This document shows positions 18,611 through 27,602 of a stretch of DNA of 64,000 nt, piece by piece. The notes under the pieces were generated by a model. It was not told the DNA's origin, made no database searches, and worked only from the letters and a program-made list of their open reading frames with translations. Numbering within the stretch: position 1 is the first letter of the stretch; every line of letters starts with the position of its first letter. The translations under genes were made by a program, and so were the position numbers. The stretch comes from Polyangiaceae bacterium (lineage in GTDB: Bacteria > Myxococcota_A > Polyangia > Polyangiales > Polyangiaceae), in contig JBNKBE010000009.1 of assembly GCA_050287085.1 (NCBI GenBank), forward strand, positions 131,734-195,733, in the 5' to 3' direction.

Positions 18611-20449
18611 ATGGCGATGGGTGTAGGACGGCGACACACAGCTGGTCACAACAGACTTCGAAACTGCCTGGTTTGGGGCCTCGGGGCCTTTGCGCTCGCA
18701 GGGCCCCTGAGTTGCGGAGGGAACACCGCAGCAACAGGCAAAACGCACTTCGCGGGGGCCCGGTGCGAGCCGACGCTCGTGTTCGAATGTGAAAACCTGT
18801 GCACCGAAGGAGACATGGCTGCCTGCGAGATAGCCGGCTCGAGCTATATCGAAGGTAGGCAGGTAACCCGCGACCTCGAACGAGCTAAGAGTTTGCTGGC
18901 GCCGCCCTGCAACGCGGAGCGCCCGATCGGCTGCGGTGGGATGGCCAAGCTCGCGCAAGAAGGTGTCCTTGACTGGCCGATGGAGCGCATCGTCAAGCGC
19001 TTGGACGCCGCCTGTGAAGCCAAGGACGCGGATGCTTGCCAGCGACGGGGTCAGCTGCTGCTGGCCGAAGGCTCGAGCGCGGCGGACAACAAGGCTCGAA
19101 CGCTATTCGAGCGCGCCTGTAGCGGAGGCTCCCAGGCGGGATGTTTTCAGAAGGGCAAGTTCCTGTTGGAAACCCGTCCCGCTGAAGCCATCAAGCTATT
19201 CACCGCGGCCTGCAAAGCTAAAGTCGGTTCAGCCTGCTACGAACTGGGGGGGTTGCAGGAATCGGGAACCGGCGGCGATGCGGCACCGCAGCGAGCCCTC
19301 AACTCCTACGAGCGCGCCTGCGAGCTAGATGTAGCTGCCGCTTGCTCCAAACTGGGACAGACCTACGAACAGGGCTCTCACGGCGCACTGCGCGACCTGC
19401 AAAAGACCAAGACCCATCTGGAGAAAGCCTGCGACCTGGGAGAGGGCGATGCTTGCGCGCACCTCGGCGAACTATTGGCTTCCGGTGATGGGATTGAGCC
19501 AGACGAGCAGGCGGCGGGCAGACTGTTTGAGCAAGGCTGTGAACTGAAGTCACCCCGTGCTTGTCTGTTCCGCGGCAGGGTTCTCGAACAGGAATCAGCG
19601 GTGTCCGAAGACGTCACGGACACCTCGGCGGCGGCTGCTTTGGCGGCAACACAAGCCTATGAGGCCGCGTGTGACGGAGGAGAAAGCGAAGCCTGTGGGT
19701 ACCTCGCTCGCATGCTCATTGGGCATCGCAGCATTCCACTAGACGAGGACCGAGCCGTCGGGTTGTTTGAGAAAGCGTGCAGCGGAGAAGGGCCCGAGGG
19801 CGTCTGCGTCGACCTGGCCGCCCTGCAACTAAAACGCCACGCACCCAAGGATGCGGTCAGCGCGCTCAAGCGAGGCTGCGAACGAGAAGGCGCCGCTTGT
19901 CTCGCTCTGGCACGGCACTACGAACACGGCTATGGGGTGACTCAAAACCGCACCGAGGCGGCCAAGCTCTACCTAAGCGCTTGCCAACAGTCGGTCGCGC
20001 CGGGTTGCGTAGGTTTGGCACATCTCGCGTATCTCGGAAGCGGGACAGACGCCGACCCCGAGGGTGCCGTCGCGATCTTCGAAGAATACTGCGAACAGGA
20101 CAACGCTGAGGCGTGTCGCTACCTGGCCCTGGCGTTGGCCAGCGGCGAGGGTCTAGAAGAGCCCGACGGCGACGCCGCTCGTTCGCTGGCCGATGAACGC
20201 TGCGCTCAAGGCGATCTGGATGCCTGCGCCCTGGGCTCACTATTTCGCGTGCGCGGCGTCGGTGGACGACGCACCCCTCGCGAAGGACTCAAACGCCTGT
20301 CCAGCTTGTGCGGTGAGCAACAGGGGCTCGCGTGTTCCCTGCGCGCTCACCTGCCGGGCGTCAAGAGCCCGGAGAAGGCCTCGCTTCGCGCTCGGGCCTG
20401 CGCCTTGGGCGAGTACTCAGAGTGTCGCTGGCTTGAGGAGCGGCGCTGA
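18611..20449 (+). CDS. Sel1-like repeat lipoprotein
   Basis: Lipobox PLSC and many F/Y-x-x-AC...AC..LG units; start uncertain (18575 or 18611). Confidence 0.88.
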   Translation: MAMGVGRRHTAGHNRLRNCLVWGLGAFALAGPLSCGGNTAATGKTHFAGARCEPTLVFECENLCTEGDMAACEIAGSSYIEGRQVTRDLERAKSLLAPPCNAERPIGCGGMAKLAQEGVLDWPMERIVKRLDAACEAKDADACQRRGQLLLAEGSSAADNKARTLFERACSGGSQAGCFQKGKFLLETRPAEAIKLFTAACKAKVGSACYELGGLQESGTGGDAAPQRALNSYERACELDVAAACSKLGQTYEQGSHGALRDLQKTKTHLEKACDLGEGDACAHLGELLASGDGIEPDEQAAGRLFEQGCELKSPRACLFRGRVLEQESAVSEDVTDTSAAAALAATQAYEAACDGGESEACGYLARMLIGHRSIPLDEDRAVGLFEKACSGEGPEGVCVDLAALQLKRHAPKDAVSALKRGCEREGAACLALARHYEHGYGVTQNRTEAAKLYLSACQQSVAPGCVGLAHLAYLGSGTDADPEGAVAIFEEYCEQDNAEACRYLALALASGEGLEEPDGDAARSLADERCAQGDLDACALGSLFRVRGVGGRRTPREGLKRLSSLCGEQQGLACSLRAHLPGVKSPEKASLRARACALGEYSECRWLEERR

Positions 20450-21175
20450 CGTCGCGCTCGGCGCTGACGTCGCGCTCGGCGCTGACGTCGCGCTCGGCGC
20501 TGACGTCGCGCTCGGCGCTGCCCCCGAGGGTACAGCCGCTGTCGACCCTGCGGCGAGACCCGCGACACGCCAAACCTGTCCCTCGCGCTCGACGCGATAG
20601 CTCTGCTGCGTCGCTTCTCCCCCAGCGAACGACTCGACCCGAACCTCAGCGCTATCGCGTTGCTGACGCAGGACAATCGCGCGCGTCTTCACCAGGTTCT
20701 TGCGTTCCTCAGCCGAGTCGCGACACGCGGCTTCACAAGCCCGTTCGGCGGCCCCAACAAGCCCTTGGCCGGAAGCGGACGCCAGGCTGCGAGCGCGGTC
20801 GAATTGGTACGTATTCAGACTGTGGAGAAACTCGTGAGCCGCGTCCTTTGGCGTGCGCATCATCTGCTCGACAGAGGCCACCTTGAACGGCTGGTACATG
20901 GGCGGGTGAGCATTGCAGGCCACCTTGGCGCTGCCCCAGGCGAGCGTGGTGACGCCACACAAAACGGCCACGAAGGCGAGCATCAGGCGTGTGTTGCTGT
21001 CTTGCCCTACGCCGCCGAGCGGCTCTGCCACGACAAGGACCGGCCCGCGCCGACCCTTGGCCCCCTTCTGGGAGGCGCCAGCCTCGTCAATCTTCTCGTG
21101 CGAAACCGCGGGGCTAGCCTCCTCCGAGAGCGCTTGGGGCTCGGGGCTTTGTTCCTGATCCTGGGAGCCGGTCAT
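20417..21175 (-). CDS. Hypothetical single-TM protein with C-terminal PSATSA repeat
   Basis: One TM segment and an NTF2-like-looking body; its 3' end overlaps the convergent Sel1 gene by 33 bp. Confidence 0.65.
   Translation of the reverse strand: MTGSQDQEQSPEPQALSEEASPAVSHEKIDEAGASQKGAKGRRGPVLVVAEPLGGVGQDSNTRLMLAFVAVLCGVTTLAWGSAKVACNAHPPMYQPFKVASVEQMMRTPKDAAHEFLHSLNTYQFDRARSLASASGQGLVGAAERACEAACRDSAEERKNLVKTRAIVLRQQRDSAEVRVESFAGGEATQQSYRVEREGQVWRVAGLAAGSTAAVPSGAAPSATSAPSATSAPSATSAPSATSAPLLKPATL
20441..20520. repeat. 18-bp tandem repeat CGGCGCTGACGTCGCGCT x4.4
   Basis: Read directly; the first unit contains the TGA stop of the Sel1 gene. Confidence 0.97.
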
Positions 21176-21283
21176 GGCCGCGGAGCATGGGGGATCCCCC
21201 CCCACAAGGCAAGCTCTCCCAATCGCTCACTGCGGCGATGAAAAAATGGGGCAACCAGGTCAGATAGGCGTCGACTCGGGAGC

Positions 21284-22264
21284 ATGAATCGCATGCCCGC
21301 AGCCGTTCCGCTCAGACCTCGCAGTGCGAGCCGAACGCCACGTCTATGCAAACTGCTGGTTGCGCTGAGCGCGCTGGTGGGCTGCACGCCTCGGATTGTC
21401 ATCCCGCCGGCCGCCGCGCGCTTGAACGACCAGGGAGCCGGGGCCCTCACACGAGGCGAGCTCGATAGCGCCGCTCGACAGCTTGAACTCGCGCTGGAAT
21501 ACCATCCCGCGTTCGTGCAGGCACTGTCGAACCTCGGTCTCGTCGAGCTCCGACGGGGCAATCTTTCGCGCGCCGAGCAACTGCTCGAGCGAGCCGTGCG
21601 GCAGGACCAGGACGTAGCTCAGCCACACAACGGGCTCGGGCTGGTCGATGAAGCCCTAGGCGCCACCCACGACGCCGCGGAGCACTATCTGGACGCCCTG
21701 CAGATCGATCCGGGCTTCGTTGAGGCACGAGCAAACCTGGGCCGCCTTTATTATGAACGAGGCGATTATCTGCTGGCTCAGGAGCAGTTCGAGAAACTCC
21801 AACACACGGCACCCGAACGACTCGAGGGCTTCCTCGGCCATGCGGAATGCCTGCTCGCCACAGGGCGCCTCGACGAAGCCGCCCAGACGCTGAACACGGC
21901 CCGCGCACGCTTCGGTGACACGCCAGCGCTGATCTTGGCGGAGGGCCGGCGACAGATTCTCGTCGAAGACTTCGCCGACGCGGCACGCACCCTTGCCCCC
22001 CTGGCCAAGGGCGATGGTGACGAGGCGATAGAAGCTCAAGCTTGGCTGAGCGTGCTGGCGCTGGCTCGCGGTGACCTGAAGCGGGCTGTAGCGGCGGCGC
22101 GGTTGTGCCTCAGTCGGGCTCCAGACCACGCGCTCGCCACCTACGCCCTGGCCAGCGCGCTAGCGGGCCTGCACGCGCCGGGAGCCGACGCGTGGCTCCA
22201 TCGTGCGGCACAACTCAATCCGGAGCACCCACAGCTGGCCATAGCGGATGCGAGCAAGCGATAG
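21284..22264 (+). CDS. TPR lipoprotein
   Basis: Lipobox LVGC; TPR units ALSNLG, HNGLG, ARANLG. Confidence 0.88.
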   Translation: MNRMPAAVPLRPRSASRTPRLCKLLVALSALVGCTPRIVIPPAAARLNDQGAGALTRGELDSAARQLELALEYHPAFVQALSNLGLVELRRGNLSRAEQLLERAVRQDQDVAQPHNGLGLVDEALGATHDAAEHYLDALQIDPGFVEARANLGRLYYERGDYLLAQEQFEKLQHTAPERLEGFLGHAECLLATGRLDEAAQTLNTARARFGDTPALILAEGRRQILVEDFADAARTLAPLAKGDGDEAIEAQAWLSVLALARGDLKRAVAAARLCLSRAPDHALATYALASALAGLHAPGADAWLHRAAQLNPEHPQLAIADASKR

Positions 22265-22357: not shown

Positions 22358-24103
22358 TCACTCGCCGGCCGCTCGACGGTGTGACAGCACCGCTTCCGCC
22401 CGTGCTTGGGTAGCCATCCCAGTGATCATCTGAAAGGTCTTGTAGCCGCCACTCAAGTTGCGAACGCGAAAGCCGCGCTGCATCAATAGACGCGTTGCGT
22501 AATAGGAGCGCTGTCCTGCCGCGCAATACACCCACAGCTCTTTGTCGCGCGGGAGCTCCGCGGTGCGCTCTCGAAGCTCGTCCAGAGGGACGTGCAGCGC
22601 CCCCGGAACAGCGCCGCCTGCATGCTCGGCTGGCGTCCGCACGTCTAGCAGCACATGATCCTCATAGCTCATATCAACGCCGAGCCCCTCGCCTCTACTA
22701 GCCAGCACCTGCTGCCAACTGGCGGCCGGCATGTCTCCCCGCAGGAGATTCGAAGCGATGAAGCCAGCCAGATTCACCGGATCTTTTGCCGAACCATATT
22801 GAGGCGCGTAGCAGAGCTCCAAGTCTTCCAAGTCGAAGACCGACAGCTCCTGAGAAATCGCGAGGGCAAAGACGTCGATGCGACGGTCGATCCCCTCTTC
22901 ACCAATCGCTTGCGCCCCGTAGATCAAACCACTGCCGCGAGCAAAGAGCACCTTCAGGTTCATGACCTTGGCACCTGGGTAGTAGGTCACGTGATTAAAG
23001 GGGTGCAGATAGATAGCCTCGTAGTCGGTGATACCCGCCGCCTGAAGTGCAGCTTCGCTGGCACCCGTTGCAGCGGCTGCAAGCCCCATGCATCCACAAA
23101 TCGAGGTGGCCTGAACGCCCTTGAAGACTCGCTCCCGTCCAAATATGCAGTCGGCCGCGATACGGCCCTGACGATTGGCTGGGCCCGCTAGTGAAAGCAG
23201 ACGTGTCTGCTCCGTCACCCTATCCAATACTTCAACCACATCCCCAACCGCCCAGATATGGGGGTCACTGGTGCGCAGCGTTGCGTCGACGACGATGCCT
23301 CCGTGCTCACCAATCGCCAGCCCCGCCTGTTCGGCGAGTTCGCTCGCAGGACGCACGCCGGCGCACAACACAACCATTTGCGTGTCGACTACGGCCCCCG
23401 AGTCGAGGGTCACTTCCAGCGCGCCAGCCACCCCCGCAACACCCGTCACCCGCGCTTGTTTGACTACCCTGACGCCATTTTCCCGCAACCGTTGCTCGAG
23501 CGGGGCCGTCATCTCGACGTCCAGGGTCTTGAGCAGGCGGTCACCGGCCTCGACCAAGGTGACCGAAAGGCCCCGCCGGTGCAGGTTTTCGACCATTTCA
23601 AGTCCGATAAAGCCTCCACCAATGACCACCGCCTCGGTCACCCGATGCGCCTGCAAGTAGGCCCGCATGTTCCTGGCGTCCGGCACCGTTCCCAGGGTGA
23701 ATACGCCGGGCGTCTCGCTGGACACGCCCGGTATTGGAAGCGGCTTGGCCCCCGGCGACAACACCAGGGCATCGTAGTCTTCCTCGTACACCTCTCCACT
23801 GATGCGGTCCCTAACCGCAACGCAGCGTCGCTCGCGATCAATCGCAACAACCTCCTGCTGAATACGTACGTCGATCCGGAAACGCGAGTGGAAGCGTTCG
23901 GGGGTCATCAGCAGAAGATCCTGCTCTTCGACGATGACGTTTCCCACGTGATAGGGCAGGCCGCAATTGGCGAACGAAACGAACGCTCCGCGTTCAAACA
24001 CGACGATCTCACAGTGTTCGTCCAGACGCCGGGCCCGGGCCGCAGCCGACGCCCCTCCAGCCACTCCGCCGACGATCACCAACTTTTTCGGTATTGTACT
24101 CAT
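22358..24103 (-). CDS. CoA-disulfide/persulfide reductase with rhodanese domain (CoADR-RHD)
   Basis: GGVAGG, SFANCGLPY redox Cys, GGGFIG, YAPQY, rhodanese LLDVR...YCAAGQRSY; SD GAGGA before ATG 24103. Confidence 0.93.
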   Translation of the reverse strand: MSTIPKKLVIVGGVAGGASAAARARRLDEHCEIVVFERGAFVSFANCGLPYHVGNVIVEEQDLLLMTPERFHSRFRIDVRIQQEVVAIDRERRCVAVRDRISGEVYEEDYDALVLSPGAKPLPIPGVSSETPGVFTLGTVPDARNMRAYLQAHRVTEAVVIGGGFIGLEMVENLHRRGLSVTLVEAGDRLLKTLDVEMTAPLEQRLRENGVRVVKQARVTGVAGVAGALEVTLDSGAVVDTQMVVLCAGVRPASELAEQAGLAIGEHGGIVVDATLRTSDPHIWAVGDVVEVLDRVTEQTRLLSLAGPANRQGRIAADCIFGRERVFKGVQATSICGCMGLAAAATGASEAALQAAGITDYEAIYLHPFNHVTYYPGAKVMNLKVLFARGSGLIYGAQAIGEEGIDRRIDVFALAISQELSVFDLEDLELCYAPQYGSAKDPVNLAGFIASNLLRGDMPAASWQQVLASRGEGLGVDMSYEDHVLLDVRTPAEHAGGAVPGALHVPLDELRERTAELPRDKELWVYCAAGQRSYYATRLLMQRGFRVRNLSGGYKTFQMITGMATQARAEAVLSHRRAAGE

Positions 24104-24359
24104 TCGTTCCTCAGGACCCAAAGTGCGCCGAGACAACGTCTCGTAGCGCCATGCGCGAGAACGGCTGGTGCCCCCCAGCCGCTACGCCACCAACTTCCGT
24201 GACGCGTGCCTCCGGAGGCCATTGTTAGGTCTGCGGCGCAGCGACACAGTGGGCCAAACGGCGCGCCTTCAAGACGGATAAGACGCCGCAGATCTCGCGT
24301 TACCAACAACGCTAGAGAACGGGTGCAGCGAACGGCACAAGCAGCGGCGTCGCACCTAC

Positions 24360-25046
24360 TTGGAACATGAGGTGGCACCGCGAACGGAATTCGAAAGCTC
24401 GACGCAGAGGCGCTTTGCGGCTATCGTCGTCCTTGTGACAGCGCGCGACGTCGCCCATTGCTTCGCTCTCATGCGCGCTTTCGAGTTCCAATTCCAGCAG
24501 CGACGCCTTGTGCGCTGGGTCAAGCGGGCCTTCTGGGTCTATGCCGCATGGAGCTCGGCGCTGTGGCTGCTCCTCCCCCCGCAGCCGGGCACTCTCTATC
24601 AACGATTGACCATGCTCGGGTGGTTTATCGTGGCGTTGACGCTCGCTTGCATCTCGCGCGAGGCCGGGCTACCTGAGCCACTGATACGAACGACGGGCGC
24701 CAGCTCCTGGCACAGCCTGGTCGGGCGAGCGCTGGCGCTATTTCGACACAACGCGCCGGTCGCGTGTGGCTCGCTCGCGCTCATTGGCGCAAGCGCTTGG
24801 ACACAAGCCGCCCCTCACATGCAAGCCACCCTGATGCTCCGGGCGCTCCCTAGCGGGCTGGTTGCACTCCTGGTAACGACCGGACTACTGAGCTTCGCCG
24901 GAGCCGGTGCCTGGGCGCTGAGCCGCAGCAATCCCCGCACGCTTGTCTTGGCCCTAGTCCTGATACCCTGGTGGCTGCATGCAACTCTTCCTGAAGTGCC
25001 GTCCATACTCGATCTACATCATTGGATGATCGCAAAGGCCCTGTGA
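24360..25046 (+). CDS. Multi-TM protein resembling a divergent ABC-2 permease
   Basis: About 5 hydrophobic helices; first gene of a tight three-gene unit; start uncertain. Confidence 0.55.
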   Translation: MEHEVAPRTEFESSTQRRFAAIVVLVTARDVAHCFALMRAFEFQFQQRRLVRWVKRAFWVYAAWSSALWLLLPPQPGTLYQRLTMLGWFIVALTLACISREAGLPEPLIRTTGASSWHSLVGRALALFRHNAPVACGSLALIGASAWTQAAPHMQATLMLRALPSGLVALLVTTGLLSFAGAGAWALSRSNPRTLVLALVLIPWWLHATLPEVPSILDLHHWMIAKAL

Positions 25047-25068
25047 CTGCAACGCTTTCGATTCGCTG

Positions 25069-26070
25069 ATGCTCTCCCCGGACATGCCGCCCACGACCGA
25101 GTTGTCGCTTCAATTCGATGACGTCGAGCAGCCATCCTTCGCGCTCAACTCCAGATTCGGCGTGGGGCTCCATTGGCTTTGGAGCGATGACTTGGAACTC
25201 CTTCAGGACATTGCCAAGACTGCGGTGGGCATCAAGGCCCCCCGGCGGGGCCACGTGGCGCTGTCGCAGCGCAATCCCTATCGCGAGCCCGAAGTACGGA
25301 GAAGAATCGGCAGCTTTCTCGGTGACGTCACGTTCGACCCCAAGCAGCTGCCTTTGGGCAAGGCACGCGGCGCACGCATAAGCGGGGTACTCAATCAATT
25401 GGATGTGCTGCGAGGCGGACGTGTTGGCGCAAGCGTTGCGACCTACAGCCGTCTGGGGTTGAGCTACGACGACCGCTTGCTTTCGGAGCTCGATCACTCA
25501 GCGCGCCGACAACTGGAATTGGCGCTTGCCCTCAGTGACTCAGCACGGGAGCTGATCGTATTGTTCCAACCGTGGTGCGCTGGCGTCGACAGCTCATCGC
25601 TGCTGGCCGCTCTCGAGCGAAGGGCGGAGGATACCGTGGTCTTGCTAGGGACAAACGCAGCTCCACCTGCGCAGTTGGCAGCTCATAAGTGGCTTTTTCA
25701 CGAACGACGTCTATACGATCGAACACCACCGGAGCGCCCTGCGCGCCCGGGCGCACGGGCAAGACTCACACTCAGCACCACTCCCAGCCAGAACCTAGCC
25801 GCTCGCTTGCGAGCGTGCGAAGACGTCTTGGGCGTAGAACTGGAAAGCGAGTCGCCGGACCGCTCCGTATGGCTCTTGGAGGGACTCTCCCGCGACGCCC
25901 TGTCGCGAGTCGCGCTTCTGGCCTGTCGCGAGCTCAATCTCCAAGTATTCGCCTTGAGCACCTCGGCCGCTACTGTGGGTCACGCCCTAAGCCTGGTTCC
26001 ATCGTTGACCTCCAGCTTAACGCCGCCTCAACAGTCCCGCGATGTCCACGAAGCGAAGGCGAGCCTATGA
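25069..26070 (+). CDS. Degenerate ABC-2-type ATP-binding protein (pseudo-ATPase)
   Basis: NBD scaffold visible (GIKAPRRGHVAL, NPYREPEVRRRIG, RRQLELALAL, LIVLFQP..AGVD, TVVLLGT), but Walker A, LSGGQ, Walker B DE and switch His are absent. Confidence 0.7.
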   Translation: MLSPDMPPTTELSLQFDDVEQPSFALNSRFGVGLHWLWSDDLELLQDIAKTAVGIKAPRRGHVALSQRNPYREPEVRRRIGSFLGDVTFDPKQLPLGKARGARISGVLNQLDVLRGGRVGASVATYSRLGLSYDDRLLSELDHSARRQLELALALSDSARELIVLFQPWCAGVDSSSLLAALERRAEDTVVLLGTNAAPPAQLAAHKWLFHERRLYDRTPPERPARPGARARLTLSTTPSQNLAARLRACEDVLGVELESESPDRSVWLLEGLSRDALSRVALLACRELNLQVFALSTSAATVGHALSLVPSLTSSLTPPQQSRDVHEAKASL

Positions 26071-26714
26071 GCCGTCGGCCGTCGCTTAGCCCGCTCGGCA
26101 CTCGTCGTGGGCTGTTGCTGGTCGGCGGTGCAATCTGCTTTGCCATGCTCGTCAGCACGGAGGTGCGTAGCCATCACGCGTATCTCGCGCATCGCATCGC
26201 CCGGGCCCACGTCGGTCTGCTCATCCCCATTCTGGCCTTGCTGCTCTCGCGCGGTACCGAGGAAACCAGAAGGTGCCTGGAACAGCGAGCCCGCTTTGGG
26301 GACAACCGGCGTATCTTGACTCTTCACGCCCTGCTCCGGCAGGCCTTGGTCACGGGAACAGCCAGCGCATTGCTCCTGGGTGTGGCCGCTCTCAGCTTGG
26401 GTATCACCCGCATATCCTCGAGCGTGCTGCTAACACTGACGGCGTTTCTGGCAGGAACGGGCTACGTCTTGTGGTGCGCGGCCGGTCAACGCCTGCTGCC
26501 GTTCCGGGGGGGTGCCATTCTCGCCCTCGTTCTAGACTGGCTGCTGGGGCGGGGTCATGGTCCAGCCGCGCAGGGGACCTTGCGGGGTCAACTCCGGGCG
26601 CTCAGCGTCGACGAGCAGTTGCTGAGCGCGGCTAGTATTGGAGCCAGCTGCGCTAGTATTCTTGCTCTGCTGGCGCTGCTGGTCGCGATTATACTGGTGC
26701 GCGAGCGTCCCTAG
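26067..26714 (+). CDS. Multi-TM protein resembling a divergent ABC-2 permease
   Basis: ATGA overlap with the previous stop; about 6 TM segments, LLIPILALLL, ends VRERP. Confidence 0.65.
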   Translation: MSRRPSLSPLGTRRGLLLVGGAICFAMLVSTEVRSHHAYLAHRIARAHVGLLIPILALLLSRGTEETRRCLEQRARFGDNRRILTLHALLRQALVTGTASALLLGVAALSLGITRISSSVLLTLTAFLAGTGYVLWCAAGQRLLPFRGGAILALVLDWLLGRGHGPAAQGTLRGQLRALSVDEQLLSAASIGASCASILALLALLVAIILVRERP

Positions 26715-26894: not shown

Positions 26895-27602
26895 GTGAAA
26901 GGGATCAACTACCTTTTCAGCAGTTATGCGGCCCTGACAACCGAGCTGGAACGCAATGACGACGAGCAGGTACTCGACCTTCCGAAGGGCGCCGACGGCA
27001 TAGCCGAAGGTGAGTGGGTGCTTTCTTGTACCACTGTTGGAGAGGAGTCCTTCTCGGTGGCGGCCTGCTGCGTTGATCGCGGCGTCGGACTTCAGCTTTC
27101 TTTTAATCCCCAAGATTGGAACAAGTTGTGGCGGTTCGCGCGGCAAAACGCACCACTGAGCATGCCGCCGGTCATGCCGCCCGCGCCTTGCGCCGATACG
27201 CCTGAACCCACTGGCTCTCTTATCTTGCACATCGATCCAGACCCTGACACGCAGGAGGTCGTTCGCTGCCTGCTTCAGGCGGGGGGCTATCGCGTGCTCA
27301 CCGCGGGCAGTGCTGAGGAGGCGTTTGACCTAATGTGGAGCAGCACCGTGGATCTGGTGGTGCTGGAAGCCAGGCTGCCCGGCATGAGCGGTTGCGAATT
27401 TTGCGGTCGAATTCGTCGCGACAGGCACTTCGCAAACCTGCCGGTGATCGTTCTCACGACACAATCGAGCGCCAACGAGGTCGTGCGCGCCATCGAAGTC
27501 GGAGCAGATGACTACATGAGCAAGCCCTTCAAGATGCCGGAACTCCGAGCGCGCGTGTGCGGCTTGCTGCGTCGCGCACGCATGCCCGCCCGCAGCGCCT
27601 GA
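26895..27602 (+). CDS. Response-regulator-like protein: unknown N-terminal domain plus atypical receiver
   Basis: REC fold ILHIDPD...DLVVLEARLPGMSG...LPVIVLT...GADDYMSKPF; Glu at the phosphoacceptor position. Confidence 0.88.
   Translation: MKGINYLFSSYAALTTELERNDDEQVLDLPKGADGIAEGEWVLSCTTVGEESFSVAACCVDRGVGLQLSFNPQDWNKLWRFARQNAPLSMPPVMPPAPCADTPEPTGSLILHIDPDPDTQEVVRCLLQAGGYRVLTAGSAEEAFDLMWSSTVDLVVLEARLPGMSGCEFCGRIRRDRHFANLPVIVLTTQSSANEVVRAIEVGADDYMSKPFKMPELRARVCGLLRRARMPARSA

Follow-up and report, generated by a model that had tools for sequence, protein, structure and literature searches.

ABC transporters are not expected to act independently of ATP, and the nucleotide-binding domains (NBDs) of the NosFY, DrrA/GldA-type, YtrB2CD and LnrL2MN systems are active ATPases. 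These closest described systems resemble the operon reported here in combining an NBD and a C-terminal regulatory domain with a transmembrane domain (TMD) of the NosY/ABCG fold (for NosFY, PDB 7o0y). One NBD gene together with two TMD genes makes up the complete type V layout in the YtrB2CD and LnrL2MN systems of B. subtilis, as described in PMC11466899. Unlike in all of the above systems, the sole NBD of the present operon lacks the A-loop, Walker A, signature, Walker B Asp, D-loop and H-loop and, unlike in the Nos and Gld systems, no NosD- or GldG-type partner gene is found in the operon. Judged from sequence, the operon is homologous to the type V exporters but appears to lack every catalytic feature by which a member would be recognized.

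Conserved, catalytically impaired NBDs that remain under selection are likewise seen in TM287/288, TmrAB, ABCC1, ABCG5/G8 and B. subtilis NupO. These transporters keep one consensus site, however, whereas the ATP-binding residues of the operon described here are gone and a dedicated, active second NBD was not found (ATPase1, like intact ATPase2, occurs in 1 of 126 genomes of the family and in none of nine in its sister family, f11). In ABCC1/7/9, ATP binding persists at the degenerate site (PMC7756269). A literature search that covered few subscription papers returned nothing describing this operon or any ABC transporter that lacks all functional sites, and the content of PMC4103005 could not be mapped to the operon genes. 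Intact operons of Myxococcota, in four-gene and three-gene forms, share the same gene order and give one-to-one profile matches for TMD1, ATPase2 and TMD2; they differ in that both of their ATPases carry intact motifs and co-occur across genomes, as counted below.

The degenerate ABC transporters described in the literature cited here keep one working ATP site, and the operon of this family appears to keep none, yet it is conserved family-wide. If true, this would be a natural ABC-derived complex taken fully out of ATP coupling, with evolutionary intermediates still present in sister families. The resulting series (four-gene intact, three-gene intact with a displaced ATPase1, and three-gene dead lacking ATPase1) allows a motorless ABC membrane domain to be tested and bears on what a dead NBD is for. 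The analysis also gives an identity to proteins listed as hypothetical in databases.

The operon in the window and its three proteins

The original prediction for the window (the whole 64,000-nucleotide stretch of DNA analyzed) described three ORFs with a 22-bp gap, an ATGA overlap and zero internal stops, all of which was borne out. The motif strings it quoted from the middle protein were found at residues 38-47 (WSDDLELLQD), 141-148 (LDHSARRQ), 162-168 (LIVLFQP) and 193-196 (LGTN), which the family alignment identifies as Walker A, the signature, Walker B and the H-loop, respectively (Table 1). The family consensus of the P-loop is G-x-x-x-D-G-T-x, and the window copy is without even that. 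No promoter consensus was found for the operon.

Table 1. Features of the operon in the window, and loci carrying the intact homologous operons.
Feature	Position	Strand	Description
TMD1	24360-25046	+	228 aa; membrane subunit of ABC-2/type V derivation; TTG start, uncertain
Pseudo-ATPase	25069-26070	+	333 aa; ABC NBD (~residues 10-218) and NosF/DrrA-type C-terminal regulatory domain
Dead P-loop	25183-25206	+	SDDLELLQ at the GxxGxGKT position
Degenerate signature	25489-25512	+	LDHSARRQ; family L-S/T-x-x-E-x-R, ancestor YSxGMRQ
Degenerate Walker B	25552-25572	+	LIVLFQP (family hhhh-x-E-P); lost D-loop after it
H-loop	25645-25656	+	LGTN; His in 0/58 orthologues
C-terminal regulatory domain	25759-25962	+	strand-helix-strand-strand-helix-strand in the model, pLDDT >85
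TMD2	26067-26714	+	215 aa; six-helix type V exporter membrane domain
Intact four-gene operon, ATPase1-TMD1-ATPase2-TMD2	loci L220-L236
Intact three-gene form	loci L126, L127, L137-L152, L216-L219

Because the window proteins, taken singly, gave zero significant Pfam or NCBIfam matches in single-sequence scans, the NBD assignment needed testing. The window pseudo-ATPase alone matches NosF only at E 0.014. PF00005 is matched by 11 of 19 aligned family members, and the family profile matched 329 PDB sequences at E ≤ 0.001, the best at 6e-27. An AlphaFold model of the protein (pLDDT 84.6) matches MetN, NosF and ABCA7 at E of about 1e-10, the regulatory domain included. Fold and homology (PF00005, the PDB profile matches and the model) clearly identify the middle protein as an ABC NBD, as had been proposed.

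The flanking ORFs, initially described as permease-like, are ABC-2-type permeases on the evidence of profile comparison, the fold of TMD2 and PF12679 reached via the ancestor. The model of TMD2 (pLDDT 89) was aligned by VIA with ABCG8 (Z 17.8, rmsd 3.3, 214 aligned) and NosY (Z 17.4, rmsd 2.9, 209 aligned) and also resembles ABCG2 (Z within 17.4-17.8); Foldseek returned the same top rows, yet at a non-significant E > 0.03. Positions Y133, D157, G161, R173 and L179 of TMD2 are conserved in the family, with Y133, D157 and R173 each kept by 90% or more of the 54 aligned rows. All five lie in TM4-TM5 or the short helices after it, and conservation is now centered on TM4-TM5 and the short outer helices. 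No direct Pfam match was found for TMD1 among 19 members; its homology to ABC2_membrane_2 follows a profile route through the ancestral TMD1, which matches PF12679. TMD1 is poorly conserved (23% mean identity), and hydropathy indicates approximately five hydrophobic segments in the family, the sixth of the ancestor being absent. The coupling motifs of the TMDs have changed as well, the ancestral F.KP and L..RP having given way to Gly-containing ones. Few copies diverge as far as that of the window, with 25/39 family-conserved positions kept in the NBD, 12/25 in TMD2 and 11/14 in TMD1; its TMD2 is the lowest of 54 by this count.

A complex prediction given TMD1, TMD2 and two copies of the NBD scored 0.41, relative to 0.01 for the best control, and dropped to 0.01 with TMD2 swapped out; at least 60% of contacts are shared between runs, with a partner pLDDT of at least 68. 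In calibration, 116 of 157 solved pairs and 2 of 215 mismatched ones attained the score mark; of these, only 18 solved pairs did so at scores of 0.60 or below, as did both of the mismatches. As NosFY-like structures have already been solved, the score may reflect likeness, and the prediction is only weakly consistent with a TMD1-TMD2-NBD assembly.

Distribution, motif loss and selection across the family

A first search found homologues in 26 of 61 related genomes, accompanied by the two flanking genes in unchanged order. Of 151 family genomes, 122 (from 77 of 89 genera) yielded TMD2, almost invariably in single copy; it was not found in the other 29, some of which are nearly complete. The operon is kept in a reduced genome consisting of a single contig of 1.8 Mb (G066). 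A broader TMD2 profile detected the gene in 108 of 126 family genomes, including the unpublished G541, and in eight of nine genomes of the sister family. A narrow profile, used at class level, yielded 12 of 201 genomes, all from the family, and misses divergence at the level of the sister family. A word-based protein search, a method insensitive for this family, returned the query alone and, when given the TMD2 alignment, one relative. The family is most likely Polyangiaceae, since one orthologue (P0004) comes from Pajaroellobacter abortibovis, a member of the Polyangiaceae.

All three genes occur together in 56 of 60 loci (59 fetched, plus the window). The four exceptions comprise one genome with displaced parts (G096), one with a weak NBD match (G063), one with a weak TMD1 match (G173) and one with no TMD1 match (G121). 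In the first of these (G096:C11:4016467-4024957), the NBD and TMD1 genes lie ~6 kb away from TMD2, and all three genes are retained. Separately, at one locus of the sister family (L120:6965-8638, minus strand), the NBD shares a single frame with the N-terminal half of TMD1, suggesting a TMD1 frameshift or an assembly error.

The loss of catalytic motifs described for the operon's sole ATPase extends across the family. In a comparison of 58 family NBDs with 38 intact homologues, the Walker A Lys, GK[S/T], a canonical P-loop and the H-loop His are each found in none of the 58. SGG is likewise missing from the signature (0/58), which retains its Ser in 24 and its second Gly in five, and Walker B retains Asp in eight, Glu in 47 and the two together (DE) in seven, with the window reading FQ. 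The A-loop Tyr stands at 0%, and the D-loop G/D/P residues stand at 12-22%. Relative to the intact homologues, the losses comprise the A-loop Tyr, the P-loop Asn/Gly/Lys, the signature Gly/Met/Gln, the D-loop and the terminal LEALF helix, an ancestral motif of the regulatory domain that is not conserved in the family. Structural glycines are kept at 71-98%, as is the Walker B proline, and other residues are newly fixed, including a P-loop Asp (46/58) and a Glu (45/58) and an Arg (52/58) in the signature helix. The window copy is without the G..DG loop and the signature Glu. The NBD sequences read from the sister family are degenerate too, with Walker A absent. An assembly artefact or an alternative genetic code was rejected as the cause of the motif loss, given that 58 NBDs from different genomes share it.

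The pseudo-ATPase is under purifying selection in relatives. Its dN/dS (NG86) ranges from 0.15 to 0.40 in 26 of 28 close pairs, the remaining two being saturated or undefined; the pairs are not independent, with some genomes entering twice. In the same pairs, the permeases range from 0.05 to 0.54 and the controls lolE and cca, where present, from 0.00 to 0.34. With the Walker A Lys absent from all 58 orthologues and dN/dS nonetheless at these values, the original reading of maintained function rather than decay was upheld. That reading had linked orthologues with intact motifs to simple erosion; intact homologues do exist, but only outside the family, where they mark the ancestral state. The pseudo-NBDs have evolved at much higher rates than the intact ATPases, mean identity being 28% versus 50%.

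The four-gene operon and its two ATPases

Weak TMD2 matches in another family, f22, revealed loci that share the three-gene order but encode a fully intact ATPase; close relatives of this ATPase occur in records from Sandaracinaceae, Polyangiales and Myxococcota. TMD1 of this intact system was matched in 40 of 201 genomes of the wider phylum. Twenty such loci were fetched; 16 have the order ATPase1-TMD1-ATPase2-TMD2 with both ATPases intact (TMD2 was not detected in two of these), and four are without ATPase1 nearby. The four-gene operon has no NCBIfam equivalog (the best matches, drrA and GldA, fall below cut-off), and no function was found for it.

All 58 dead NBDs score higher with the ATPase2 profile than with the ATPase1 profile, and the NBD family profile matches ATPase2 at E 3.5e-42 versus 1.5e-28 for ATPase1. 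In hhalign comparisons, the TMD1 profile matches the ancestral TMD1 at 97.9% (E 4.6e-13; crosswise 83.5%) and the TMD2 profile matches the ancestral TMD2 at 97.1% (crosswise 12.9%), and PF12679 is matched by both ancestral TMDs. By these profile comparisons the dead operon corresponds gene by gene to the four-gene operon, its members representing, as far as sequence can tell, TMD1, ATPase2 and TMD2. A quick IQ-TREE analysis of 87 rows (34 of the 58 family NBDs, five from the sister family, 23 ATPase2, 16 ATPase1 and nine others) groups the NBDs of the two families into a single, long-branched clade (SH-aLRT 100). Because the tree does not fix the point at which this clade attaches, we infer descent from ATPase2 through the profiles and gene order. 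In the proposed history, ATPase1 would first have left the operon for elsewhere in the genome, and its loss, together with the inactivation of ATPase2, would have followed in the common ancestor of the family and its sister family.

An ATPase1 profile run over 301 genomes of the order split cleanly, with orthologues at 317 bits or more and the next paralogue at 263 or less. Of the 82 genomes that carry ATPase1 or ATPase2, 76 carry both (among them the unpublished G433), and 219 have neither. In three-gene genomes with an intact ATPase2, ATPase1 persists as a stand-alone gene (nine such loci were read). In strong contrast to f22, where ATPase2 is found in 25 of 27 genomes, the family yielded ATPase1 in one genome of 126 and intact ATPase2 in one of 126, and the sister family yielded each in none of nine. 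As the genomes are drafts at least 85% complete, the two genes are given here as not found. The sole family genome with both (G177) carries a separate, complete and intact four-gene cluster (L236, G177:C35:216900-220500) beside its own dead operon (L237). In the tree, the ATPases of this cluster fall among those of f17 and class-level members, suggesting that it may have been re-acquired by transfer.

Elsewhere, the displaced, stand-alone ATPase1 adjoins a conserved small CxxC membrane protein in nine of 10 loci (L238-L245, L252 and L253). No Pfam match was found for this small protein, a possible extra subunit of the intact system.

Possible roles of an operon apparently without ATP sites

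We place about even confidence in a reading in which the three genes form a static, ATP-independent inner-membrane complex, with the dead NBD capping TMD2 and the useful surface in the membrane part. NBDs without a P-loop, signature, D-loop and H-loop would be unable to form an ATP sandwich and hence to deliver a power stroke; used once or twice without an active partner, the dead NBD would allow no site to form. It would instead cap TMD2 as a structural or adaptor subunit, and the pseudo-ATPase may serve as a scaffold or sensor. The preserved job would lie in the membrane part, mainly TM4-TM5 and the outer short helices of TMD2, as a docking or sensing platform. More tentatively, the ABC exporter of this lineage may have become a complex with zero ATP sites that acts as a passive or ion-driven carrier or as an envelope sensor.

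The original prediction had also raised an asymmetric partnership with an NBD encoded elsewhere. In its natural form this did not hold up, as the ancestral partner, ATPase1, was not found in the sister family or in any but one of the 126 family genomes, and ATPase1 was rejected as the partner on these counts. A borrowed motor could take another form, in which TMD1 would recruit an active DrrA-, GldA- or PilH-type ATPase encoded in a different operon. Paired with the pseudo-NBD, this ATPase would make an extremely asymmetric transporter that has no more than one working site. A single degenerate site has precedent (PMC7756269), and sister families run the system with ATPase1 encoded elsewhere. 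The family also keeps the Walker B Glu in 47 and the signature Ser in 24 of 58 NBDs, and one genome (G000) has a stand-alone PilH-like ATPase at C4:292754. We nevertheless regard such an arrangement as unlikely, since ATPase1 is so rare in the family, the pseudo-NBD has lost the signature glycines and D-loop needed to complete the site of a partner, and the coupling motifs of the TMDs have changed. Moreover, the stand-alone ATPase has a candidate permease of its own (C8:112176) and was not found in the reduced genome G066, which keeps the operon, so that it is unlikely to be an obligatory partner, and the only DrrA-type ATPase among those inspected in G066 adjoins its own permease.

The ATPases of G000 and G066 were assessed through their gene context. 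The DrrA-type ATPases read in G000 mostly have adjacent permeases. The same genome encodes a stand-alone, active-type ABC ATPase at C4:292754-293731 and, as its candidate partner, a stand-alone ABC2_membrane_2 permease at C8:112176-113069; the two are probably a split pilH/pilI-like pair. Another stand-alone ATPase, at C14:148472, has only a divergent six-helix protein as its neighbor, and G000 and G066 each encode a GldA-like system, from which a paralogous active ATPase could be borrowed. PilH-like, PilI-like and CcmA-like are labels that we presume for these ABC genes, and GldA-like is presumed in part from likeness to the profile matches.

Distinctly doubtful, in our view, is a passive or ion-driven carrier, in which the TMD pair would move a lipid or small molecule as a facilitator, scramblase or proton-coupled carrier, the pseudo-NBD acting as a stabilizer and the conserved TM5 Asp with Arg/His residues close by mediating any proton coupling. 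In favor of such a carrier are the ABCG/NosY fold retained by TMD2, the retention of the operon in a 1.8-Mb genome and the strong conservation (90% or more of 54 rows) of Y133, D157 and R173. The acid at D157 is not new, however, because the ancestor carries Glu there, TMD1 is down by one helix at 23% mean identity, and the neighboring genes give no substrate clue.

It is improbable that the operon is a vestige in slow erosion, held by weak selection (e.g., against a misfolded membrane protein) and without positive function. Open frames and operon order persist across 77 of 89 genera, dN/dS is far below 1, the reduced genome retains the operon, and the loss is concentrated on nucleotide-contact residues and accompanied by new conserved ones, all of which weigh against erosion more than the long branches and low identity, the 29 of 151 genomes in which the operon gene was not found, the highly eroded window copy and the apparent TMD1 frameshift in one sister-family assembly (L120) speak for it. 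Least probable of all is a ligand sensor, in which the pseudo-NBD or regulatory domain would bind a non-ATP ligand or a partner protein and signal through the TMDs, for although the regulatory domain is retained and folds confidently and the acidic P-loop residue and new E/R of the signature helix are fixed in the family, the window copy is without the G..DG loop and signature Glu, and no signaling gene is conserved beside the operon across groups.

No accessory gene conserved across all groups was found beside the operon. The neighbors, comprising a TPR protein, a response regulator, a LolE-like permease and genes that, from their sequences, we take to be a kinase, a CCA-adding enzyme and FtsH, are syntenic within the family and not across groups. 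In 8 of 19 relatives, the TPR gene lies directly 5' of TMD1 on the same strand. In the window, a pyridine nucleotide-disulphide oxidoreductase with a rhodanese domain (22358-24136, minus strand) stands between the TPR gene (21284-22264) and TMD1, and given the arrangement in the relatives it seems to have been inserted into what may be a four-gene unit. A gene for a one-helix membrane protein, at 20417-21205 on the minus strand in the window, precedes the operon in divergent orientation at 15 of 20 loci; the protein has no Pfam match, and the window copy ends in short ATSAPS repeats. Finally, the response regulator of the window (26895-27602, plus strand) has an unannotated N-terminal domain of ~105 aa and, in many same-genus loci, lies directly 3' of TMD2.
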